A DNA stretch of 64,000 nt from Minisyncoccota bacterium (lineage in GTDB: Bacteria; Patescibacteriota; Minisyncoccia; Moranbacterales; UBA2206), in contig JARLIA010000005.1 of NCBI GenBank assembly GCA_031291955.1, positions 74,034 to 138,033 of the forward strand. The letters are read 5' to 3'. The notes beneath the pieces are model-generated. The model made no database searches, was not told where the DNA came from, and saw only the letters and a list, made by a program, of their open reading frames with translations. This document shows positions 17,846-53,077 of this stretch, one piece after another (position 1 is the stretch's first letter; every line of letters starts with the position of its first letter). The position numbers were made by a program, and so were the translations under genes.

Positions 17846-20068
17846 ATGGAAAACAAATTCAAAATATCCTCCAAATTCAAGCCCGAAGGCGATCAGCCGC
17901 AGGCGATTGAAAAATTGACCGCGGGGCTTGAGGCTGGAAAAAAGTTCCAGACGCTTTTGGGCGTGACGGGGTCGGGGAAGACTTTTACCATTGCCAACGT
18001 CATTGAAAATATCCAAAAACCGACTTTGGTCATTGCGCCCAACAAGACTTTGGCGGCGCAACTGGCGCAGGAATTTCGGACTTTCTTTCCCAAAAGCGCG
18101 GTGGAATATTTCGTTTCCTATTATGATTATTATCAGCCGGAAGCCTACATCGCTTCCTCCGACACATACATCGAAAAGGAATCCCAGATCAACGACGAGA
18201 TCGACCGGCTTCGCCACGCGGCCACCGCGGCGCTCATGAGTCGCCGCGATGTCATCATTTGCGCTTCGGTGTCGTGTATCTACGGTTTGGGCAGCCCGGA
18301 ATATTATCGGAATATTACGCTGGAATTGGCGGTGGAGGACGGTTATTCGCAGGTTCGGGCGTCCACGCCCGAACCGCATAGTCCTGGTAAAACAAAATTA
18401 TCAGTCAAATCTGAATCGAAAATTTCCGCAGATAATAAAAAATTACCAGAAATGGCAGGTTCAATCGGGACGATTGAACCTGCAAAAAAAAATAATAGGG
18501 ACGAGATTGTAAAAAAATTGATCGACATGCAATATAATCGGAGCGATGTTTTGGCGCGGGGGAAATTCCGGCTGACCGGGAATACTCTGGAAATTATGCC
18601 GCCCGGACGGGAAATTGTAACGAGGATTGAAATGGAAGGGGGCAGTATTAAAAAAATATTCGAGTACGATTTTCTTACCGGCGAGGAACTGGGAAAGCTG
18701 GAAAAAGCGGTCATCTATCCAGCCAAACATTTCGTGGTGCCCGAACCGGTGATGGAAGGCGCTTTGGAAAAAATTCAAAAAGAAATGGAAGAGCAAGTGG
18801 AATTTTTCAAGCGTCAGGGAAAGATTCTGGAAGCGGAAAGGATTTCCCGTCGGACGCGCCAGGACATTGAAATGATGAGGGAAATCGGCTACTGCAATGG
18901 AATTGAAAACTATTCCCGCTTTCTCACTGAACGCCAGCCCGGTGAACCCCCCTACACTTTGATCGATTATTTTCCCGACGATTTTCTCATGGTGATTGAC
19001 GAATCGCATGTGACCGTGCCGCAACTCAACGGAATGTATAACGGCGACCACGCCCGGAAAGTCTCACTGATCGACAACGGCTTCCGCCTGCCTTCGGCTT
19101 TTGATAACCGCCCGCTTAAATTTCCGGAGTTCGAGAAAAAAATAAACCAGCTGATTTTCACGTCGGCGACACCGGCAAAATATGAAATGGAAAAATCAAA
19201 AATAGACCCCCTCTCCCGTAATCGGGAGAGGGTTGGGGAGAGGGCAACGCGGAACTCGGCGCCCTCTCTGTCGCGAGTACGCGACATCTCTCCCGAGTAC
19301 GGGGGAGAGGGAAATATTGTGGAACAAATTATTAGGCCGACCGGACTGATTGATCCAGAGCTGGAAATCAAGCCGACCAGAGGACAGGTGAAAGATGTGA
19401 CGGAGGAGATCAAAAAAATAATCGCCCGGAAGGAGCGGGTGCTTATCACCACGCTGACTAAAAAAATGGCCGAAGACTTGTCGGATTTCTTGAAAGAGAG
19501 CGAAGTGAAAGCTGAATATCTCCATTCCGGCGTGGACACTTTGGACCGGGTGCGGATTTTGGAACAATTGCGCCGGGGAAAATTTGATGTTCTGGTCGGA
19601 GTAAATTTGCTGCGGGAAGGGCTCGATCTTCCCGAAGTTTCTTTGGTGGCGATTCTCGACGCGGACAAAGAAGGATTTTTGCGGAGCGAAACGTCGCTCA
19701 TCCAAACCATCGGCCGCGCCGCGCGGAATGTCAAAGGAAAAGTTATTCTCTACGCCGACACCATTACCGGTTCGATGAAACGAGCTATCGACGAGACAAA
19801 CCGTCGCCGGGCAATCCAGACGGAATATAACAAAAAACATCGTATCACTCCAAAAACCATCAAGAAGAAAATCCAGTCGATCGTCGACCATGAAATCAAA
19901 CCTCAGGTGACGCGCGACTTTTCCCAATTGGAATCATTGGAGGATATGGCCGGCTACATTAAACAACGCGAGCGCGAAATGAAAGACGCGGCCCGGAATT
20001 TGGAATTTGAAAAAGCGGCGATCATCCGGGACGAGATAAGTGAGTTGAGGAAGCTGCAGATAAAATAG
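17846..20068 (+). CDS. uvrB: excinuclease ABC subunit B (740 aa, with two in-frame insertions)
   Basis: Walker A GVTGSGKT, helicase motifs, EQIIRPTGL, and C-terminal UVR domain EFEKAAIIRDEISELRKL. Confidence 0.95.
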   Translation: MENKFKISSKFKPEGDQPQAIEKLTAGLEAGKKFQTLLGVTGSGKTFTIANVIENIQKPTLVIAPNKTLAAQLAQEFRTFFPKSAVEYFVSYYDYYQPEAYIASSDTYIEKESQINDEIDRLRHAATAALMSRRDVIICASVSCIYGLGSPEYYRNITLELAVEDGYSQVRASTPEPHSPGKTKLSVKSESKISADNKKLPEMAGSIGTIEPAKKNNRDEIVKKLIDMQYNRSDVLARGKFRLTGNTLEIMPPGREIVTRIEMEGGSIKKIFEYDFLTGEELGKLEKAVIYPAKHFVVPEPVMEGALEKIQKEMEEQVEFFKRQGKILEAERISRRTRQDIEMMREIGYCNGIENYSRFLTERQPGEPPYTLIDYFPDDFLMVIDESHVTVPQLNGMYNGDHARKVSLIDNGFRLPSAFDNRPLKFPEFEKKINQLIFTSATPAKYEMEKSKIDPLSRNRERVGERATRNSAPSLSRVRDISPEYGGEGNIVEQIIRPTGLIDPELEIKPTRGQVKDVTEEIKKIIARKERVLITTLTKKMAEDLSDFLKESEVKAEYLHSGVDTLDRVRILEQLRRGKFDVLVGVNLLREGLDLPEVSLVAILDADKEGFLRSETSLIQTIGRAARNVKGKVILYADTITGSMKRAIDETNRRRAIQTEYNKKHRITPKTIKKKIQSIVDHEIKPQVTRDFSQLESLEDMAGYIKQREREMKDAARNLEFEKAAIIRDEISELRKLQIK
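18352..18483 (+). repeat. in-frame palindromic module 1 inside uvrB
   Basis: GGTTCGGGCG-TCCA-CGCCCGAACC (18352-18375) and GCAGGTTCAATCG-GGA-CGATTGAACCTGC (18455-18483) flank an A-rich word region. Confidence 0.85.
19209..19309 (+). repeat. in-frame palindromic module 2 inside uvrB (four consecutive hairpins)
   Basis: CCCTCTCCCG-TAAT-CGGGAGAGGG; GAGAGGGC-N15-GCCCTCTC; GTCGCG-AGTA-CGCGAC; CTCTCCCG-AGTA-CGGGGGAGAG. Confidence 0.85.
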
Positions 20069-20294: not shown

Positions 20295-20615
20295 TTAGGA
20301 TAGGAAGATGGTTCTTTCAAAACTTGGTGCGTTTCAATTCTTAAATTAAACTTAGCTGTCTCACTAAAGACAATATGTATGGATGTTATTTTTAGCGAGG
20401 CAGTTAAGTTCTCAATATAAATTTTGCTCGCAGGAGCCACTTGAGCGAAGCACTCGTGGCATTTATCCGAAAGGATTTATACCATGCGCTCGGGAAAGGC
20501 CACTTCTGGGAAGCACTCGCGGCGGAAATCTCACCGTGCCCTAAAGGAGAGAAAAATTTATCTCTGCCAAGCCTCCGGGAAAGAAAGACATGTCTTTCTT
20601 TCCCATCCTCATTTT
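20295..20615 (+). ncRNA. candidate structured RNA or long leader (about 320 nt), class unknown
   Basis: Delimited by the 20260 promoter and the perfect 14-bp palindrome GGGAAAGAAAGACA/TGTCTTTCTTTCCC (20577-20604) plus a T tract. Contains two related 25-nt hairpin units (20436-20460, 20499-20523). No convincing ORF. Confidence 0.35.
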
Positions 20616-22241: not shown

Positions 22242-22919
22242 ATGCAAAACACACAATCGCTTACCGGAAAGCAAAAGAACCTGCTCGAAACGATCCGGGA
22301 ATATGTTGACCAGCGAAATGAAAATCCGACCAGTTATCGCCTGCATAAATACTTGGAAGCGCAGGGCGTGAGAGACAGTTTGAAGTCTGTCATGCAAGTC
22401 ATTGAAGCTTTGGAGAAAAAAGATCTGGTGAAACGTGACGGCGACAAGCGGCTCTATCTCATTGAGAACGGCAATTATGCCAATCTGAAAAACATTTTTT
22501 CCGTGCCGGTCTATGGCTTGGCCTCTTGCGGCGAAGCCTTGGCCTACGCCGAGGACAACGTGGATGGGTTTTTGCAAATCTCCAAAGCCTTGTTTCGCGG
22601 GGCCGACTCGGCCAAACTTTTCGCCGTCAAAACTTTGGGTGATTCGATGGACAAAGATGGCATAAACGATGGCGATTACGTTATCTTTGAAAAATACGAA
22701 TACGACAAAGGAGAGGAGCTGGAAGGGAAAATCGTGGTGGCGGTCATCAATGGAATGGCGACGATCAAGAGATATAAAAAAGTGAGCGACGAAATCATCG
22801 GTCTTTTCCCGCGCTCGAAAAACACCGTCCACCAGCCGATCTTCATCCATTCTTCCGACTCGATCCTGGTCGCCGGGATTTTCCGGAAAGTGCTGCCGGT
22901 GAAATACGTAAGTTTGTAG
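22242..22919 (+). CDS. lexA: LexA-like repressor (wHTH plus S24 peptidase domain)
   Basis: GDSMDKDGINDGDYVIF (Ser nucleophile) and ATIKRY (Lys). Putative cleavage region VYGLASCGEALAY. Confidence 0.88.
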   Translation: MQNTQSLTGKQKNLLETIREYVDQRNENPTSYRLHKYLEAQGVRDSLKSVMQVIEALEKKDLVKRDGDKRLYLIENGNYANLKNIFSVPVYGLASCGEALAYAEDNVDGFLQISKALFRGADSAKLFAVKTLGDSMDKDGINDGDYVIFEKYEYDKGEELEGKIVVAVINGMATIKRYKKVSDEIIGLFPRSKNTVHQPIFIHSSDSILVAGIFRKVLPVKYVSL

Positions 22920-23014: not shown

Positions 23015-26000
23015 ATGGACAAAATCATCATAAAAGGCGCGCGGGAGCATAATTTGAAGAACGTCGACTTGGAGCTGCCGCGGAATAAATTTATCGTTTT
23101 TACGGGAATTTCTGGGTCAGGGAAGTCGACCATGGCTTTTGATACTATTTTTGCCGAGGGGCAACGGCGCTATCTCGAAAGTCTTTCCAGTTACGCTCGG
23201 CAGTTTTTGGGGCAAATGAATAAGCCTGACGTGGACTATATTGAAGGTCTGTCGCCGGCCATTTCCATCGACCAGAAAGCGGCGTCCCACAATCCGCGTT
23301 CGACGGTTGGAACGGTGACGGAAATCCACGATTATTTGCGATTGCTATATGCCAAGATCGGCCGGCCACATTGTCCGATCTGCTCCCGGGAAATTACGAA
23401 GTTGTCGACAGATGAGATTGTTGATCGGATTTTGGAGATGTGCGCCGCGAAACCTCATCCGCCCCGGAGTACTGGGGCACCTTCTCCTTATAAAGGAGAA
23501 GGAGATAATGGAAGGGGCTGTTCTATCGAAATTCTATCGCCGGTGGTTCGCCAGCGGAAAGGGGAATATTCGACGATGCTGGCTGAGATGTTCCGGCGGG
23601 GGTTTTCCCGCGCTTACGTCAATGGGGAAAAATACGAACTGTCGGCCAAGATCGGAGACGAGTTGGAATTGGCCCGCTACAAAAAACATAATATTGATAT
23701 CGTGGTAGATGAGGTGGAGATATCTAGCGACAACATTTCGCGAATATTTGAAGGAGTGGAAAAGGCGCTGAAGTTGTCGGACGGACTGGTCAAGATAAGA
23801 TCCGAAATCCGAAATACGAAATCCGAAACAATGTCAAAATCAAAAATTAAAAATTCAAAACAAAACAATACGGAAATTGTTTTCAACCAAAAACTTTCTT
23901 GTCCGATCCATGAGATTGAGTTTCCGGAGTTGGAGCCGCGTTTGTTTTCTTTCAACAGTCCGTTTGGCGCTTGTCCGGCTTGCGAAGGATTGGGAACGAA
24001 AAAAGAAATCGACCCGGCGCTGGTGGCGCCGGATAAAAACAAAACGATTGCTGAGGGTGGCATCTTCCCTTGGAGCTACAAACGGAATAACTGGCAAGGG
24101 TCGGTTCTCCGGGCGGTTTGCAATCATTTCCACATCAAAGACAATGTGCGCCTCCGTGACCTTTCGGAAGATGACCTCAACATCTTAATGTTCGGCGGAC
24201 CGGATGCGACCGATATGATAGATAAGGAAGAAGCGGAAGAAATACCCGTCACTTTGAAATCAAAAACCGGTTCAAGCTGGAAATATTACATGACCTGGCG
24301 CGGAGCGGTCGGATATCTTCAAGATCGATATTTCAAGACCGATTCGGATGCGGTGCGGGCGGATATTGAAAAATATATGTCGCAAAATCCGTGTTCGGTC
24401 TGTCACGGCGCGCGTTACAAAAAAGAAGTCTTGCTGGTGACGGTCGGCGAATCCCGCCCGCAACGCTTCGCTAACGCAAGTGTTAGCTTGCGTAGCGATG
24501 CGGGCGGGAAAAATATTGTCGAAGTCTCAAATGTGTCTGTGGCTGAGACGCTTAAATTTTTCGAAAGACTGGAATTGAATAAAAATGAGCAGATCATCGC
24601 CGGGAGAATTTTGAAGGAAATTATTAATCGCCTAGGCTTTTTGGAAAACGTGGGACTGGGATATTTGACTTTGGCCAGATCCGCGGCGACACTAGCCGGC
24701 GGGGAAGCGCAACGGATCCGCTTGGCATCGCAAATCGGTTCGGGTCTCACCGGCGTTTTGTATATTTTGGACGAACCGTCGGTCGGTCTTCACTCGCGCG
24801 ACAACACTAAATTGCTCGAGACGCTTTTTCATCTGCGCGATCTGGGAAACACGCTAATCGTGGTTGAGCACGATGAAGAGACGATGCGGGAGGCCGACTA
24901 TTTGGTTGACATCGGACCGGGAGCGGGAAAATTGGGAGGTAAAATTGTGGCGCATGGCACGCCGGTAGAAGTTATTCGCGATAAAAAATCTTTAACCGCG
25001 GCATATTTGCGGGGTGACGCGAAAATAGAAATGCCGAAATTCCGCCGGCCAGTCAAGAATAAAAAAACGATTGTTGTCCGCGGCGCGCGCGAACACAATT
25101 TGAAAAACATTACCGTCGAGTTTCCTTTAAAAGTTTTGACGTGTGTGACGGGCGTGTCCGGCTCGGGGAAATCCACATTGGTAGAGGACATCCTTTATAA
25201 AGCCTTGGCGTCAAAAATCATGCGGACGCTCGACCGGCCGGGGAAACATTCGGAGATTGTCGGCACGCAATATGTTAACAAAGTGATCATGATCGACCAG
25301 TCGCCGATCGGTCGGACGCCGCGCTCCAATCCGGCGACTTATACCGGGCTCTTTACGCCGATCCGGGAATTATTTTCCCAGACCCGGGACGCCAAATCCA
25401 AGGGTTATGGTCCGGGGCGCTTTTCGTTCAACATCCGGGGCGGACGCTGTGACAACTGCCAAGGCGACGGCCAGCTTAAAATTGAGATGCAGTTCATGCC
25501 GGATGTCTATTTGCCTTGCGATGTCTGTCACGGAAAAAGATACAACAGTGAGACCTTGAAAGTGAAATACAAGGACAAAAACATTTCCGAAGTTTTGGAC
25601 ATGACGGTCAGCGAAGGGCGCGAGTTTTTTGAGAATTTTCCGGCTATTCACGACAAGCTGGCGGTTTTGGAAGACGTCGGCTTGGGCTATATCCAACTCG
25701 GGCAGTCCGCCACCACACTTTCCGGCGGGGAAGCGCAAAGGATAAAACTGGCCACGGAACTGGCAAGGAGGGCGACCGGCGACACTTTGTATATTCTGGA
25801 CGAACCGACGACTGGCCTCCATTTTGACGACATTAAAAAACTTTTGAATGTTTTGAACCGCTTGGTCGATGCCGGCAACACAGTGGTGGTGATCGAACAC
25901 AATTTGGACGTCGTCAAAACCGCCGATTGGATCATTGACTTGGGTCCGGAAGGCGGAGAAGGCGGCGGAAAAATTATCGTTACCGGTCCGCCGGAAGAAG

Positions 26001-26062
26001 TGGCGAAATATCATAAGGAAAGCTGGACGGGAAAGTATCTGAGAGATGTATTGAAAAAGTAG
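23015..26062 (+). CDS. uvrA: excinuclease ABC subunit A (1015 aa, with several in-frame insertions)
   Basis: Two ABC ATPase modules ([18 protein letters not shown]), LSGGEAQR signatures and zinc modules CxxC. Confidence 0.95.
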   Translation: MDKIIIKGAREHNLKNVDLELPRNKFIVFTGISGSGKSTMAFDTIFAEGQRRYLESLSSYARQFLGQMNKPDVDYIEGLSPAISIDQKAASHNPRSTVGTVTEIHDYLRLLYAKIGRPHCPICSREITKLSTDEIVDRILEMCAAKPHPPRSTGAPSPYKGEGDNGRGCSIEILSPVVRQRKGEYSTMLAEMFRRGFSRAYVNGEKYELSAKIGDELELARYKKHNIDIVVDEVEISSDNISRIFEGVEKALKLSDGLVKIRSEIRNTKSETMSKSKIKNSKQNNTEIVFNQKLSCPIHEIEFPELEPRLFSFNSPFGACPACEGLGTKKEIDPALVAPDKNKTIAEGGIFPWSYKRNNWQGSVLRAVCNHFHIKDNVRLRDLSEDDLNILMFGGPDATDMIDKEEAEEIPVTLKSKTGSSWKYYMTWRGAVGYLQDRYFKTDSDAVRADIEKYMSQNPCSVCHGARYKKEVLLVTVGESRPQRFANASVSLRSDAGGKNIVEVSNVSVAETLKFFERLELNKNEQIIAGRILKEIINRLGFLENVGLGYLTLARSAATLAGGEAQRIRLASQIGSGLTGVLYILDEPSVGLHSRDNTKLLETLFHLRDLGNTLIVVEHDEETMREADYLVDIGPGAGKLGGKIVAHGTPVEVIRDKKSLTAAYLRGDAKIEMPKFRRPVKNKKTIVVRGAREHNLKNITVEFPLKVLTCVTGVSGSGKSTLVEDILYKALASKIMRTLDRPGKHSEIVGTQYVNKVIMIDQSPIGRTPRSNPATYTGLFTPIRELFSQTRDAKSKGYGPGRFSFNIRGGRCDNCQGDGQLKIEMQFMPDVYLPCDVCHGKRYNSETLKVKYKDKNISEVLDMTVSEGREFFENFPAIHDKLAVLEDVGLGYIQLGQSATTLSGGEAQRIKLATELARRATGDTLYILDEPTTGLHFDDIKKLLNVLNRLVDAGNTVVVIEHNLDVVKTADWIIDLGPEGGEGGGKIIVTGPPEEVAKYHKESWTGKYLRDVLKK
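23461..23502 (+). repeat. in-frame double hairpin inside uvrA
   Basis: GCCCCGG-AGTA-CTGGGGC (23461-23478) and CCTTCTCCTT-ATA-AAGGAGAAGG (23480-23502). Confidence 0.85.
24452..24509 (+). repeat. in-frame 58-nt long hairpin inside uvrA
   Basis: Outer stem TCCCGCCCGC/GCGGGCGGGA (10 bp). Inner stem GCTA(A)CGCAAG/CTTGCGTAGC. Confidence 0.85.
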
Positions 26063-26067
26063 AAATT

Positions 26068-27327
26068 ATGACGACCATCCTCCAAAAGCTGAAAAACCTG
26101 CCTCAATCACCGGGGGTGTATATTTTCTATGATAAAAATAGAAATATTTTGTACGTGGGAAAAGCGACGTCGCTTAAAGATAGGGTTGGTTCGTATTTTC
26201 AGAATAAGATTGGGGCGGTGCGGACGATTGAGATGTATATGAATGAAGTGACGGATCTGGAGATCAAGAAAACCGACACGGTTTTGGAAGCGTATATTTT
26301 GGAACAATCTTTGATCAAAAAACTTCAGCCGAAATATAACGCGATGGGGAAAGACGATAAGTCATTTACGTACGTACTTCTTTCTAAGGAAGAATTTCCG
26401 AGATTCGCGGTGGTACGGGAAACTGATTTGGATAGTGTAAAATCATCGCCCCGTGGGGGGCAAAAATCTTTGCCCCCCACGGCGAAGGTTTATGGTCCGT
26501 ATACGTCGAAACGGCAAATTGAGGCGGCCTTGAAAATCTTACGGAAAATTTTTCCCTATCACAACCGGCCGGAACATTCGGAGTCCCGGTGTTTTGATTA
26601 TCATCTTGGGCTTTGCCCCGGACCGTATGACGGGAAGATTTCCAAAAAAGAATACGTCAAAAATATCCGGGCGATAAAAATGATCTTGGAAGGGAAGAAG
26701 AAAGGACTTATAAACCGGATGAAAAAAGAGATGGAAGAATGTTCAGACAAGGCTGAATTTGAAAAGGCGGCGGAGGTGCGGAACAGGATTTTTGCGTTGC
26801 AACACATCCAGGACGTGGCGCTGATATCTGATCATAGAGACGCAATTAATCGCGTCTCTGTGGACGACGCAATGATGCGCATCGAAGGTTATGATATTTC
26901 CAATATTTCCGGGAAATTTGCGACTGGTTCGATGGTGGTGTTTGATAATTCAGACGGTGAAATGCAGCCGAATAAATCGCAATATCGTAAATTCAAAATC
27001 AAAAATGTTGAAGGCGCCAATGACGTGGGGGCAATGGAAGAAATGCTTACCAGGAGATTTCGGAACAATTGGCCGCGGCCGAATTTGATTTTGCTCGACG
27101 GCGGAGCCGGGCATTTGAATATGGCGCGGAAAGTCCTGCGGAATCACAAAATAGAAATTCCCTTGCTGGCGGTGGCCAAAGGGCCGGCGCGGAAAAAACT
27201 GGATCTGCGAAGTTTCGGGACCGTGCCGGAACTGCCAAAAAATATCATCGAACAAGTGAGAAACGAAGCGCATCGCTTCGCGATCAGTTATCATAGGAAA
27301 TTGAGAGGTAAATCGTTCACGGATTAA
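26068..27327 (+). CDS. uvrC: excinuclease ABC subunit C, compact form (419 aa)
   Basis: GIY-YIG (GVYIFYDKNRNILYVGKA), UVR domain (AEFEKAAEVRNRIFALQ), endonuclease domain (RIEGYDISN...EAHRFAISYHR). Ends right after that motif. Confidence 0.9.
   Translation: MTTILQKLKNLPQSPGVYIFYDKNRNILYVGKATSLKDRVGSYFQNKIGAVRTIEMYMNEVTDLEIKKTDTVLEAYILEQSLIKKLQPKYNAMGKDDKSFTYVLLSKEEFPRFAVVRETDLDSVKSSPRGGQKSLPPTAKVYGPYTSKRQIEAALKILRKIFPYHNRPEHSESRCFDYHLGLCPGPYDGKISKKEYVKNIRAIKMILEGKKKGLINRMKKEMEECSDKAEFEKAAEVRNRIFALQHIQDVALISDHRDAINRVSVDDAMMRIEGYDISNISGKFATGSMVVFDNSDGEMQPNKSQYRKFKIKNVEGANDVGAMEEMLTRRFRNNWPRPNLILLDGGAGHLNMARKVLRNHKIEIPLLAVAKGPARKKLDLRSFGTVPELPKNIIEQVRNEAHRFAISYHRKLRGKSFTD
26447..26484 (+). repeat. 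in-frame hairpin inside uvrC
   Basis: CCGTGGGGGGCAAA-AATC-TTTGCCCCCCACGG, a perfect 14-bp stem (26451-26482). Confidence 0.9.
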
Positions 27328-27407: not shown

Positions 27408-30221
27408 ATGCCCACTCAAAAATCTTCTCCTAAAAATACTTTCTCACTGAAGGATAAAATCGTCATCCGTGGCGCGCGGGTGAATAATTTGAAGAACATC
27501 GACGTGGACATTCCGCGGGATAAATTGGTCGTAGTGACAGGTCTTTCCGGGTCGGGGAAATCTTCTTTGGCTTTTGACGTGGTCTACGCCGAAGGCAATC
27601 GGCGGTATCTGGAAGGCATGTCGAGCTACGCCCGGCAGTTTTTGGATGTTTCGGCTAAACCGGACGTGGACAAAATAGAGAATTTGAGCCCGACCATCTC
27701 AATTGATCAAAAAAGCTTGAGTCGTTCACCTCGCTCGACGGTCGGGACGCTCACGGAAATTTACGATTATTTGCGAGTGCTCTACGCCAAAGTGGGAACG
27801 CCCTATTGTCCTCATTGTCTCTTGCCGATGGGGCGCAAAAAGAACCAGGAAATTTTGGAGGAAATTTTGGTTTTGCCGGAAAATACCCAAGTGGCGGTCC
27901 TGGCTCGGATAAAAAATGAAGGTCAGAGTGTTAAGGATATTCTCAAAAACATCAGTCAGCTTGGTTATGCCCGGGCGCGGGTTGGCGGTAAAATCGTCTT
28001 GATTGCCGACGCCTTGCTTTTTCCGGAAGAAAACTTGAGCGGCAACGTCGAAATCGTGGTTGACCGGATCAATCTCAAGAAAAAAAATCCCGATCACGAA
28101 CGGATGTTGGATTCTATTGAGACTGCTTTTAAATTGGGGAAAGGTTTTATGGCGGTCGCAATCGATAATGGTGAGAGCCGGATTTATAATCAAAATTTTG
28201 TTTGCAGCAACTGCTATTTCAAAATTTCGGAAATCACGCCCAAGAATTTTTCTTTCAACAGTCCCGAAGGCGCCTGCGAACATTGCGCGGGAATGGGTAC
28301 TATCCAGGAAGTGGACGAGGATCTGATCATTCCTAACAGAAATCTCACTTTGGCCGAAGGAGCTATTATGCCGCTCGCCAAGTCCGGCGGCCGGGCTGGG
28401 TATCTCGATACTCTCACCAAGATCGGCGAGAAAGCGGGTTTTTCCGTGAATGAACCGGCGCGGAACATTTCCAAGGAAAATTTGAAAGTTATTTTTCATG
28501 GTTTTGGTGTGCCTGGTACTCCTGGTTATTTTGAGGGAGTGGTGCCGATGATTCGAAAAAAATATACCGAAGCGGCCACTCAGACGGCCCGGACCGACAT
28601 CGAAAAATATATGCTGGAAAAAGATTGTCCCGAGTGTGGAGGCAAGCGTTTGAAAAAAGAATATTTATCCGTCTTGATGAGCGGGAAATCGATCGACGAT
28701 TTGGTCCGGATGGATATCGATACTCTCATTTTATTTTTAGAAAATTTACGGACTGCCGATTTGAGTGCCGCCAAAGCGGAAATCGTGGCGCCATTGGCAA
28801 AAGAAATGATCGCCAAAGCCAAGGCGCTCAAGAACGTCGGCTTGGAATATCTGTCACTTTCCCGCCGGGCCGATTCCATTTCCGGCGGCGAAGGTCAGCG
28901 CATCCGGCTCGCAACTCAAATTGGATCGGAACTTTCCGGTATTATCTATGTTCTGGACGAACCGTCTATCGGTCTCCATTCCCGAGACAATGAAAAGTTG
29001 ATCGACACGATGGAAAAGCTGAAAGAGAACGGCAATTCTCTGATCGTGGTCGAGCATGACAAAGACATTATCGAGTGCGCCGATTGGGTGATCGACATGG
29101 GTCCCGGGGCAGGGGAGTTCGGCGGGGAAGTTATCTTTTCCGGTTCGGTGAAAAAAATGGAGAGCGTCGCGACATCCACTGCCAAGTTCCTTTCCGGCCG
29201 GGAAAAAGTAACGGTTAAGAAGAAACCGCGAACGGCATCGAAGAACTTTTTGGAAATCCTGGGTGCCGCAGAACACAATTTGAAAAATATCGACGTCCGG
29301 ATTCCACTCGGCCGTTTTGTTGCCGTCTCGGGCGTGTCCGGTTCGGGGAAATCCACTTTGGTAACCGACATTCTGGCTCGAGAGCTGGCCCGGCATTTTT
29401 GGAAGGCTAAGAAAAATCCCGGAAAGCATGATAAAATCACTGGTCTTAACCGCTTGGATAAAGTGATTAATATCGATCAATCGCCGATCGGCCGGACGCC
29501 GCGTTCCAATGCCGCCACCTACACCGGTGTCTTTTCACTTATTCGGGAACTTTTCTCCGCCACCGAAGAGGCGAAAAAACGGGGCTACGATGCCAGTCGC
29601 TTCAGTTTTAATGTCCGGGGCGGCCGTTGCGAAGATTGCCAAGGCGACGGAACAAAAAAGATCGAGATGCATCTTTTGCCGGATATGTATGTCAAATGCG
29701 AAACTTGCCAGGGAACGCGCTATAACGCCAAGACGCTTGATATTGAATATCAGGGTGCTACCGTCGCCCAGGTGCTGGATATGAGTGTTTCCTACGCGCT
29801 TCGCTTTTTCCATAAATCGCCGCTTATCGCGGCTAAACTGAAAACGCTGGAAGAAGTCGGCCTGGGCTACATCAAACTGGGACAGAGCGCCACAAATCTT
29901 TCCGGCGGAGAAGCGCAGCGGATAAAATTGGCTACCGAGCTCGCCCGGAAATCGACCGGCAAGACTTTGTATATTTTAGATGAACCGACCATCGGGTTGC
30001 ACTTTGAAGATGTGCGGAAATTGCTTCAGGTGCTGGACGCGCTGGTCGAAAAAGGCAACACTGTTCTTGTGGTGGAACATAATTTGGACGTCATCAAGAA
30101 CGCCGACTGGGTGATTGATCTCGGGCCGGAAGGCGGAAACGGGGGCGGCGAAATTGTTTACGCCGGCGAACCGAAGGGGCTGAAGAAAGCGAAGAGGAGT
30201 TGGACAGGAAAATATCTGTAA
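27408..30221 (+). CDS. uvrA: excinuclease ABC subunit A, second paralog (937 aa, no obvious insertions)
   Basis: Same domain order as 23015..26062: [23 protein letters not shown] signatures and zinc modules. Confidence 0.93.
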
Positions 30222-47386: not shown

Positions 47387-47569
47387 TGCCCTCGTCAGGA
47401 CTCGAACCTGAAACGCTTGTTCCGAAGACAAGTGTGATATCCCCGCCTGCCTACGCCTGTGCCCCCTAAAGGAATCGAACCTTTAACCTTCTGGTCCGAA
47501 GCCAGACGCTCTATCCATTGAGCTAAAGGGGCGCAGGCATAGGCGGGCACGGCGTTTCACCACGAGGGC
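47387..47569 (-). tRNA. middle tRNA-like gene (anticodon loop CUUCGGA) interrupted in the D loop by about 110 nt
   Basis: Acceptor GCCCTCG/CGAGGGC, D stem GTGA/TCAC, anticodon arm CTTGT-CTTCGGA-ACAAG, T arm TCAGG-TTCGAGT-CCTGA, discriminator A. Confidence 0.5.
47460..47532 (-). tRNA. tRNA-Arg (anticodon UCG), intact
   Basis: GCCCCTT-TA-GCTC-AATGGATA-GAGC-G-TCTGG-CTTCGGA-CCAGA-AGGTT-AAAGG-TTCGATT-CCTTT-AGGGGGC-A. 73 nt. Confidence 0.9.
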
Positions 47570-47664
47570 GTGTACGGCGGGCAGGGAAGCCAAGTACTCT
47601 ATCCACTGAGCTAAGGGCGCATAAATACATTCTGGCATTTCTTGGTAATTCCGTCCAGCGCGGA

Positions 47665-47682
47665 TACGTAATTAATTACGTA
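47665..47682. promoter_or_regulatory. perfect 18-bp palindrome TACGTAATTAATTACGTA upstream of the nested tRNA locus
   Basis: Direct reading. 45 nt upstream (minus-strand sense) of the outer tRNA 5' end. Confidence 0.5.
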
Positions 47683-47702
47683 CGCAGTTGATAAGACTAA
47701 TA

Positions 47703-47728
47703 AAAATGACCGGCAGTCCGGTCATTTT
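47703..47728 (-). terminator. terminator after tRNA-His
   Basis: AAAATGACCGG-CAGT-CCGGTCATTTT perfect 11-bp stem. Confidence 0.7.
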
Positions 47729-47741
47729 ATCATGCTCTATG

Positions 47742-47813
47742 GGCGGTCACTGGGAGTTGAACCCAGCTTCTCGGTACCACAAACCGATGTCTTACCGATA
47801 GACGATGACCGCC
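47742..47813 (-). tRNA. tRNA-His (anticodon GUG) with encoded G-1
   Basis: G-GCGGTCA-TC-GTCT-ATCGGTA-AGAC-A-TCGGT-TTGTGGT-ACCGA-GAAG-CTGGG-TTCAACT-CCCAG-TGACCGC-C. Confidence 0.9.
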
Positions 47814-47819
47814 ATATTG

Positions 47820-47892
47820 TGCGCCCACCAGGGCTCGAACCTGGGACCGTTTGCTTAAGAGGCAACTGCTCTACCAACTGAGCTATGGGCGC
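47820..47892 (-). tRNA. tRNA-Lys (anticodon CUU)
   Basis: GCGCCCA-TA-GCTC-AGTTGGTA-GAGC-A-GTTGC-CTCTTAA-GCAAA-CGGTC-CCAGG-TTCGAGC-CCTGG-TGGGCGC-A. Confidence 0.9.
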
Positions 47893-47937
47893 GAAAAATA
47901 AAACATTTTAATATGTTCGAATGTTAATATGCTTTTG

Positions 47938-48010
47938 TGCGCCGAGCAGGAATCGGACCTGCGACCAAAAGGTTAGAAACCTTCTGCTCTATCCACTGAG
48001 CTACCGGCGC
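47938..48010 (-). tRNA. tRNA-Arg (anticodon UCU), T loop reads TCCGATT
   Basis: GCGCCGG-TA-GCTC-AGTGGATA-GAGC-A-GAAGG-TTTCTAA-CCTTT-TGGTC-GCAGG-TCCGATT-CCTGC-TCGGCGC-A. Confidence 0.88.
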
Positions 48011-53005: not shown

Positions 53006-53077
53006 GGCCTCATCGTCTAGCGGCTAGGACGCCAGGTTTTCATCCTGGTAACAGGGGTTCGATTCCCCTTGAGGCTA
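53006..53077 (+). tRNA. tRNA-Glu (anticodon UUC)
   Basis: GGCCTCA-TC-GTCT-AGCGGCTA-GGAC-G-CCAGG-TTTTCAT-CCTGG-TAAC-AGGGG-TTCGATT-CCCCT-TGAGGCT-A. Confidence 0.88.

Follow-up and report, generated by a model that had tools for sequence, protein, structure and literature searches.

A double hairpin within the uvrA gene of a Moranbacteria genome belongs to a family of dispersed palindromic repeats

The 64 kb stretch of contig JARLIA010000005.1 analysed here (the window) carries uvrB and, further on, lexA, uvrA, uvrC and uvrA2 in this order. The subject of this report is a double hairpin that lies inside uvrA at 23461-23502. The host gene (23015..26062, plus strand) is an intact open reading frame (ORF) for a class I UvrA of 1015 aa with the Pfam domains UvrA_inter and UvrA_DNA-bind, and its product matches solved UvrA structures at E 5e-118. 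A LexA-like gene (Peptidase_S24, 22242-22919) is located directly upstream. Several of the 120 orthologs of the window UvrA are named by their sources as excinuclease ABC subunit A of Candidatus Moranbacteria, and the host is therefore a bacterium of the candidate phyla radiation (CPR; Patescibacteria). An identical UvrA protein is encoded on an independently assembled contig; the double hairpin is thus no assembly artefact of the window. The contigs found by a search with the UvrA protein came mainly from distant phyla and included only about 10 from Moranbacteria; the loci compared below carry L numbers. We found that the double hairpin belongs to a dispersed palindromic repeat family.

Both hairpins described in an earlier note on this DNA, back to back and in frame with the uvrA ORF, are present, and they encode PPRSTGAPSPYKGEG. 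Hairpin 1 (23461..23478, plus strand) is GCCCCGG-AGTA-CTGGGGC, with a stem of 7 bp including one G.T pair and an AGTA loop. It is followed by a linker A and hairpin 2 (23479..23502, plus strand), of which hairpin 2 itself (23480-23502) is CCTTCTCCTT-ATA-AAGGAGAAGG, with 10 perfect bp and an ATA loop. The polypyrimidine/polypurine stem of hairpin 2 is the sequence-conserved core of the unit, and hairpin 1 is the arm in which the stem sequence varies and the structure is conserved. The earlier note was right about the hairpin coordinates and left out a leader and a tail. The 5' leader AACCTCATCC (23451..23460, plus strand), which occupies positions 1-10 of the covariance model R1 described below, is conserved, and the CCTCATCC within it is invariant in the alignment of copies. 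The repeat unit consists of AACCTCATCC, hairpin 1, A and hairpin 2 (23451-23502) and starts 10 nt before the coordinates noted earlier. A comparison of copy flanks places the beginning of conservation at -2/-1, the leader in the copies being (C)AACCTCATCC. The 3' tail AGATAATGGAAGGGGCT (23503..23519, plus strand) is purine-rich in the Moranbacteria lineage, with similar tails after the copies of L083 and L085, and its end (23510-23519) is the reverse complement of the leader-like AGCCCCTTCC.

Leader and tail are paired in the minimum-free-energy structure and can close a three-way junction. The 81 nt at 23444-23524 fold as RNA with -36.5 kcal/mol (z = -3.8 against dinucleotide shuffles, with 0/200 shuffles as stable), and the corresponding value for DNA is z = -3.5. 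A hairpin census of the 64 kb window, covering perfect stems with loops of 3-8 nt, returned only five stems of at least 10 bp within real genes, three in uvrB, one in uvrA and one in uvrC. Stems of at least 7 bp with an AGTA loop are confined to three places, one in uvrA and two in uvrB, all on the sense strand. The proposal that the uvrA hairpin shares its AGTA loop with the uvrB module holds in this respect; across the family, AGTA is the loop of one sub-family only, the majority of copies having a TNC triloop. The simple pattern SSSAGTASSS occurs in the window no more often than expected (2 times against 2.4), and the AGTA loop is informative solely in combination with long stems.

The covariance model R1 was built from 36 copies in unrelated metagenome contigs, with no Moranbacteria uvrA copy included. 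It matches the window at 23451-23502 on the plus strand with 57.7 bits (E 1.5e-15), covering all 45 model positions, and at 23480-23519 on the minus strand with 25.8 bits (E 4.7e-6), the end of the tail being formed by the complement of a second leader-like motif. In the rest of the 64 kb, R1 matches nothing beyond two stretches of uvrB, 19209-19245 and 19261-19308. The family unit comprises a leader [A/C][A/C]CCTCATCC, a variable GC hairpin, a single A and a CCTTCTCCYT-loop-ARGGAGAAGG hairpin, 45-58 nt in total. In Moranbacteria, there are two copies of the unit of about 53 nt in uvrB of L085 and one each in uvrA of L083, L209, L210 and L211. The two L085 uvrB copies are mutually identical and lie one base apart from the window copy, having CCGGGGC for CTGGGGC, so that their hairpin 1 is perfectly paired; the 23-mer of hairpin 2 is identical in both. 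Variants of the unit are found at two places in uvrC of L004 and, in L009, in both uvrA and uvrC.

Outside Moranbacteria the family is widely dispersed. The pattern CCTCATCC-N8-24-ACCTTCTCCYT-N3-4-ARGGAGAAGG is present in at least 120 metagenome contigs, with a GC content of 27-70% among the matches listed. Model R1 finds 164 copies on the metagenome contigs listed (592 kb), several of which carry 3-5 copies each, and many of the copies form doublets in which a long unit is accompanied by an inverted short one without hairpin 1. A blastn search yielded 818 places in 237 plasmid or chromid records, mainly of Rhizobiaceae (Rhizobium, Sinorhizobium, Shinella). A copy on pSymB of S. meliloti 1021 scores 44.3 bits with R1, and a copy in mfd of Xanthomonas sacchari scores 46.5 bits. 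The latter gene (NZ_CP010410.1, L206) holds two copies, at 182-217 and 302-346, one of them a long and the other an inverted short unit. As mfd encodes the transcription-repair coupling factor, this gammaproteobacterium provides another host gene related to excision repair. No Rfam 15 family matches the unit, tRNAs being the only matches at E <= 1 in 46 kb of element-rich loci. In the window, Rfam likewise gives nothing above gathering scores except tRNAs, which form a cluster of four on the minus strand plus one gene on the plus strand (47460-48010, 53006-53077). A literature search with strings of the element sequence returned primer coincidences only. A phage collection contained no real match to the element, and there is therefore no sign of phage-borne spread.

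The N8-24 segment of the pattern nearly always forms a hairpin, and its stems covary across 61 variants, among them GCCC/GGGC, GGCC/GGCC, GGTC/GACC, GTCC/GGAC, GGCAC/GTGCC and GGCGCG/CGCGCC. In the R1 alignment, 97.4% of the cells assigned to pairs are paired, compared with 91.4% in shuffles, and 8/14 pairs show compensatory changes on both sides, including 3/4 modelled pairs of hairpin 1. None of 500 shuffles reached the observed values of pairing or covariation; these figures come from a model-fitted alignment and carry the caveats of such alignments.

Most copies reside outside genes. On the listed contigs of low GC content, where ORF calls are reliable, about 72/82 copies (~88%) are intergenic; they occur in either orientation, frequently at a distance of 4-80 nt behind a stop codon. 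About 10/82 (~12%) fall within long ORFs, half of them sense and half antisense. Relative to flanking genes the intergenic copies show no preferred orientation (16 '++', 13 '--'), and by flanking GC skew there is no replication-strand bias (39 vs 45). Pfam identifies the hosts of in-gene copies as isoleucyl-tRNA synthetase (IleRS; two contigs, same site), arginyl-tRNA synthetase (ArgRS), RlmN, a MiaB-like protein, Fpg and FemAB. The two IleRS genes, on the unrelated contigs L117 (metagenome) and L142, carry the element near the C-terminal part of the protein; elsewhere in the gene of L117 there is a tandem PSPYKGEG / PSPLQGEG pair together with a palindrome of the ISRDAKFCVS type. The unit is read in all three frames, as PSPYKGEG, PLLIKER and TFSLKREK, and in antisense as PSPLQGEGARRADEG, which therefore excludes a peptide-level module. 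In the uvr genes of Moranbacteria, nearly all copies are in the sense orientation.

Comparison with orthologs defines the uvrA copy as an in-frame insertion. The whole inserted block (23444..23518, plus strand) comprises 75 nt, or the 25 codons A144-G168 (AAKPHPPRSTGAPSPYKGEGDNGRG), between two Cys codons. It stands in place of 6 nt and lengthens the gene by a net 69 nt (23 codons). Among relatives with an empty site, the closest have TGC-GGAGAA-TGC (L207) and TGT-GGGACG-TGC (L208), and relative to the empty sites no target-site duplication is found at the uvrA site. The earlier note had placed the element at a non-conserved position and had named the second uvrA paralog as lacking it, and the ortholog comparison agrees on both counts. 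Loop length in the 120 Moranbacteria orthologs varies between 3-4 residues and more than 40, with dozens of differing and many unrelated inserts. The shortest stretches between DEIVDRIL-EM and IEILSPVVR are G-EGK or C-GE-C. Solved UvrA structures have 2 residues at this place, as in M. tuberculosis UvrA (3zqj), to 2 residues of which residues 143-167 of the window UvrA align, and uvrA2 (27408..30221) has no insert at this site. From the structure alignment, the insert occupies a loop at the start of what we take to be the UvrB-binding domain of UvrA.

In all orthologs the inserts at this site are multiples of three and free of stop codons (net 33, 57, 69, 75 and 81 nt), and we therefore argue that the insert is translated rather than bypassed. 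PSPYKGEG is kept in at least seven UvrA orthologs. In an AlphaFold2 model of moderate quality (56 sequences; mean predicted local distance difference test score, pLDDT, of 69), residues 145-167 are a coil of pLDDT < 50 that connects helix 132-143 to strand 170-182, and the insert is predicted to be a disordered loop.

Five lineages, the window, L083, L209, L210 and L211, carry the unit at the same uvrA site. Hairpin 1 is GCCCCGG-AGTA-CTGGGGC with its single G.T in the window, GCCCCGG-AGTA-CCGGGGC in L083, GCCTCGG-AGTA-CCGAGGC in L209, GTCCCGCC-AA-GGCGGGAC in L210 and GCCCCGACAT-CAGA-ATGTCGGGGC in L211. The sequence differs between the lineages and is fully paired in each. Leader and hairpin 2 (34 nt) are 94-100% identical in all pairs of the five lineages, compared with 39-65% identity at third codon positions in the 600 nt of uvrA that flank the unit. 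L084 has a decayed copy at the site, and in L085 a rearranged copy is found, with a new CCCCTCTCCTT-AAT-AAGGAGAGGGG hairpin beside the remnant of the old one. The closest relative, L082 (92% protein identity), has an unrelated palindrome of the GGAGACGC type at this position. The hairpin 1 type of L211 also occurs at the unrelated metagenome locus L096. Judged from these sequences, ongoing replacement or copying among family members fits the pattern better than quiet vertical descent, and it leaves room for sequence selection.

The uvrB gene of the window contains two diverged units in its site-2 insert. The first half (19209..19245, minus strand) is a short inverted unit without hairpin 1, made of CCCTCTCCCG-TAAT-CGGGAGAGGG and the leader-like GGGGAGAGGGC, and it scores 16.6 bits with R1 (E 0.0025). 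The second half (19261..19308, plus strand), to which the uvrB module of the earlier note corresponds, is a diverged long unit that consists of the leader GCCCTCTCT, GTCGCG-AGTA-CGCGAC, A and TCTCTCCCG-AGTA-CGGGGGAGAG. Its R1 score of 6.4 bits (E 2.8) is not significant alone, and the order of its parts is that of the uvrA unit; on this architecture we assign it to the family as a probable member. The layout of the insert corresponds to the doublet of a long and an inverted short unit that is common among metagenome copies, and L085 has canonical copies at both corresponding uvrB sites. The R1 match, the shared order of parts and the L085 copies bear out the earlier suggestion that the uvrA and uvrB elements are of the same kind. 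Within the uvrB module, one 9-mer (GGGAGAGGG) occurs six times in alternating orientation.

UvrB site 1 (18340-18500), between LELAVEDG and DEIVKKLIDMQY, has an insert of about 50 codons with two unrelated perfect hairpins, GGTTCGGGCG-TCCA-CGCCCGAACC (18352-18375) and GCAGGTTCAATCG-GGA-CGATTGAACCTGC (18455-18483). The same site holds 5 residues in L207, the two-hairpin unit in L085, a 24-bp perfect palindrome in L083 and a GTAGGGGG palindrome in L082. The two UvrB loops are hot spots like the UvrA loop, and the element in them differs by lineage: the two-hairpin unit, GTAG-type palindromes, the 24-bp perfect palindrome or an A-rich repeat. Taken over uvrA, uvrB and uvrC, the same three or four loops carry different members of the family or other palindrome families in close genomes.

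Strong hairpins within genes are concentrated in uvrA, uvrB and uvrC. We counted perfect stems of at least 9 bp and at least 40% GC in ORFs of at least 150 aa from 21 Moranbacteria loci and the window. There are 9 hairpins in 61 kb of UvrA ORF, 8 in 26 kb of UvrB and 11 in 19 kb of UvrC, compared with none in 20 kb of UvrA2 and 2 in 161 kb of all other ORFs. Thus 28/30 lie in the 106 kb of uvrA/B/C and 2/30 in the 181 kb of other ORFs including uvrA2, a density about 25-fold higher (binomial ~1e-10, uncorrected for shared ancestry).

Further palindromes and inserts accompany the unit in this region. The uvrC gene (26068..27327) has two in-frame palindromes, at 26451-26482 and 26836-26859. One palindrome, CCGTGGGGGGCAAA-AATC-TTTGCCCCCCACGG (14 bp), matches GCCCGTAGGGGGCAAA-AATT-TTTGCCCCCTACGGGC in uvrC of L085, a comparison made by sequence and not as an orthologous site. 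The other, AGAGACGC-AATTAATC-GCGTCTCT, is a member of a GTAGAGACGC...GCGTCTCTAC family also found in uvrC of L004, L006 and L011. In uvrA itself, a second insert (23803-23860, residues ~264-283) is an A-rich repeat, GAAATCCGAAATACGAAATCCGAAACAATGTCAAAATCAAAAATTAAAAATTCAAAAC, that encodes EIRNTKSETMSKSKIKNSKQ. It is identical at 52/58 positions to the insert at UvrB site 2 of L082 and is therefore another dispersed element. A third insert (24452-24511, residues ~480-499) is an imperfect palindrome of about 60 nt, CCCGCCCGCAACGCTTCGCTAACGCAAG-TGTTAG-CTTGCGTAGCGATGCGGGCGGG, encoding SRPQRFANASVSLRSDAGG. The AlphaFold2 model has further low-confidence coils at 266-285 and 480-497, which match these two inserts. 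A perfect 12-bp palindrome, GGGAAAGAAAGA-CATG-TCTTTCTTTCCC (20577-20604), is situated in a poorly coding stretch between uvrB and the next gene; it falls within a 70-aa ORF that is probably not real and is also found in the independent assembly L001.

Palindromes in excision-repair genes have precedents among the GTAG-/CGTC-tagged repetitive extragenic palindromes (REPs) of Di Nocera, De Gregorio and Rocco (2013, BMC Genomics 14:522; PMC3733652). Intragenic REPs are concentrated in uvrA, uvrB, uvrC, uvrD, recBCD, polA and dnaE2 of Opitutus, Thioalkalivibrio, Xanthomonas, Rickettsia and others, and they add 20-30 residues, sometimes with two inserts per gene (PMC3733652). These REPs and the two-hairpin unit are alike in being short, multi-copy, dispersed stem-loops that are mostly extragenic, occur in both orientations and form inverted pairs. 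REPs carry a terminal GTAG/CGTC tag, whereas no such tag is found at the unit ends or in the family consensus. The unit combines a leader with two different hairpins, and its sequence is shared across phyla, whereas REPs are species- or genus-specific. The host here is a CPR bacterium, outside the survey of PMC3733652. Palindromes of the GTAG type are found in Moranbacteria uvr genes too (GTAGAGACGC...GCGTCTCTAC, GTAGGGGG...CCCCCTAC), and the uvrC palindromes described above look like the GTAG-tagged REPs as published.

Rickettsia palindromic elements (RPEs; Ogata et al. 2000) are likewise inserted in frame in genes (summarised in PMC10969869 and PMC3184786). The unit resembles RPEs in its in-frame insertion into unrelated housekeeping genes, in its probable translation, in its position at sites that would not disrupt the fold, reported for RPEs as surface positions (PMC10969869), and in having a host with a reduced genome. 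RPEs are 100-150 bp long, restricted to Rickettsia and endowed with one conserved peptide per family. The unit, in contrast, has about 52 nt (69 nt net), occurs in several phyla, with hosts from CPR to Proteobacteria, is found in any frame and orientation and is mostly intergenic. With REPIN/RAYT (REP doublets and REP-associated tyrosine transposases) and IS200/IS605 systems, the unit shares its definition by hairpins, its non-autonomous nature, the lack of target-site duplication and the frequency of inverted doublets, and one relative, L211, has a Y1 transposase gene near uvrA; it differs in having no strand bias and no conserved target tetranucleotide, and in the loci compared it does not flank Y1 transposase genes. 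An assignment as a palindrome-associated transposable element (PATE) derived from IS200/IS605 was rejected, the strand counts being 39 vs 45 and no fixed tetra- or pentanucleotide being present 5' of the insertion. An assignment as a MITE, or miniature inverted-repeat transposable element, was rejected as well: the uvrA site lacks a target-site duplication, the unit's ends CCTCATCC and GGAGAAGG match as inverted repeats at only 6/8 positions, and the flanks are unconserved.

The abundance of the unit in replicons of Rhizobium, Sinorhizobium and Shinella invites comparison with the intergenic repeats of S. meliloti, among which PMC2573895 mentions RIMEs, Sm-repeats and the 'AB' and 'C' palindromes. 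A two-palindrome 'AB' motif would suit the two-hairpin layout. The unit may be one of these RIME, Sm-repeat, AB or C palindromes; a literature search for RIMEs and Sm-repeats turned up passing mentions only. The plasmid records that carry the unit contain no repeat annotation. Our literature search found no paper linking REPs and CPR and no description of such elements in CPR. The kind of element is thus known, and intragenic palindromic repeats in uvr genes have been published (PMC3733652); what sets this case apart is this family, mostly intergenic and present in several phyla, with its cross-phylum reach, its nucleotide-level conservation within a gene and its CPR setting.

We consider the uvrA double hairpin to be a copy of a short, non-autonomous, dispersed palindromic repeat, similar to REPs and RPEs, that is translated as a disordered surface loop, and we put the probability of this reading at roughly three in four. 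The family resides chiefly in the intergenic DNA of many bacterial phyla, and an occasional copy would land in, or be copied into, a coding sequence. The insertions that survive would be those that keep the frame, contain no stop codon and fall into a permissive surface loop. The uvrA copy would be transcribed and translated with its gene to yield a disordered loop of 25 residues. In Moranbacteria the family is probably still active, or else homogenised by copying between copies. As the mode of spread, we think it most likely that an enzyme supplied in trans, possibly a Y1 HUH transposase, either transposes single-strand hairpins or carries out templated copying. The insert is probably of little effect on UvrA function, tolerated rather than needed.

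Several observations weigh against this interpretation. No mobilising enzyme was identified: about 2 Mb of loci contain only two homologs of Y1 transposase, one in L211 and a distant one in L198, and neither is flanked by the element. The gene in L211 (94-531) encodes an IS200-like Y1 transposase (PF01797, 145 aa) 3 kb upstream of uvrA. The hairpins that flank it do not resemble the element, having TTTA loops and stems of unrelated sequence. Neither a target-site duplication nor a clear target motif was found, the upstream positions beyond -2 being unconserved, and the replication-strand bias expected of transposition of the IS200/IS605 type is absent. Conservation across phyla and, at the uvrA site, above the synonymous level is unusual for a purely selfish REP and may reflect a function. 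The 64 kb of this genome hold one full and two diverged copies, all in uvr genes and none intergenic. In the enrichment test, the loci had been picked around uvrA and some orthologous copies were counted repeatedly.

The conservation of leader and hairpin 2 well above flanking third positions would also be expected if the unit were not a passenger but a functional structured nucleic-acid module kept by selection at the level of RNA or single-stranded DNA. Such a module might sequester the Shine-Dalgarno-like AAGGAG in a hairpin, act as a pause or stability element in uvr mRNAs, or serve as a site for a conserved protein. In its favour are also the full compensation of hairpin 1 in every ortholog and family-wide, the retention of one primary sequence across genomes of 27-70% GC, the sense orientation of nearly all Moranbacteria uvr copies, the three-way junction closed by leader and tail (z = -3.8) and the resemblance, in our reading of the sequence, of hairpin 2 to a Shine-Dalgarno/anti-Shine-Dalgarno duplex. 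However, the indifference of the intergenic copies to orientation argues against an RNA-level role, and no Rfam family matches. The unit is absent from many close orthologs with an intact uvrA (L207, L208 and L082), decayed in L084 and rearranged in L085. The high identity is equally explained by recent copying or gene conversion, as in the identical L085 copies and the hairpin 1 type shared by L211 and L096. We regard a functional module as unlikely. A broader form of the idea, which we hold to be possible but doubtful, is that the unit is an unrecognised structured module shared across phyla, composed of a pyrimidine leader, a hairpin kept for structure only and a second hairpin in which an anti-Shine-Dalgarno-like arm is paired with an arm containing AAGGAG. 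Selection would keep the sequence of the module even in coding DNA, and its repeated capture by nucleotide-excision-repair genes would mirror a mechanistic link between hairpins and UvrABC. If this were true, the link would consist in regulation of uvr expression or in the repair machinery acting on hairpin DNA. Capture of other palindromes by such genes is known from Proteobacteria, Verrucomicrobia and Rickettsia (PMC3733652).

The remaining explanations treat the insert as a local matter of uvrA. The loop is a hot spot of indels, where many unrelated inserts are seen, a single 9-mer in alternating orientation makes up the uvrB module, and in L085 a new hairpin adjoins an old remnant, all of which would suit a de novo origin by template switching or inverted duplication, with the likeness to uvrB being convergent. 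We consider this very improbable; a template-switch origin is effectively refuted by the finding of a 52-nt unit, alike in leader, linker and arms, at loci and in phyla that are unrelated, and by the E value of 1.5e-15 from a model trained without Moranbacteria uvrA copies, since such convergence is not credible. It is highly improbable, too, that the 25 residues are selected as a lineage-specific functional loop, for example one that modulates UvrB binding, with the hairpins as a by-product of codon choice. The presumed location in the UvrB-binding domain and the conservation of PSPYKGEG in at least seven orthologs would agree with it. A peptide-level module was nevertheless rejected, since in other genes this DNA is read in any of three frames and in either orientation, and it lies mostly outside genes; moreover, conservation extends to third codon positions, AlphaFold2 gives no structure there (pLDDT < 50), and close relatives have no insert or unrelated ones. 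Finally, the insert might be left untranslated, through removal from the mRNA or ribosome skipping as in T4 gene 60 or the mitochondrial 'byp' elements. In programmed bypass elements the insert need not keep the frame, and a stop codon or an out-of-frame gap lies between matching take-off and landing codons. A superficial likeness to them comes from the stable in-gene hairpin and from the GGA codon found close to either end of the block. All inserts at the uvrA site, however, are multiples of three and stop-free, which skipping would not need, and no stop codon follows a take-off codon or lies between take-off and landing codons; translational bypass was rejected, and we see next to no chance of an untranslated insert.

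As copies of a dispersed palindromic repeat, the insertions described here bear on how CPR proteins are read. Among these bacteria, length differences of up to ~130 residues are seen in UvrA, UvrB and UvrC, and much of this variation is translated repeat DNA and not new domains, which is relevant to the annotation, alignment and structure prediction of CPR proteins. A usable covariance model for the unit is now at hand, and it reveals a sequence common to Rhizobiaceae and Patescibacteria, which is unexpected for repeats of the REP type. The results also confirm independently, in a distant lineage and with other repeat families, that palindromes accumulate in nucleotide-excision-repair genes (cf. 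PMC3733652). If the uvr bias is mechanistic rather than a matter of tolerance, it would tie the hairpins of genome parasites to the very repair system whose task is to search DNA for distortions.

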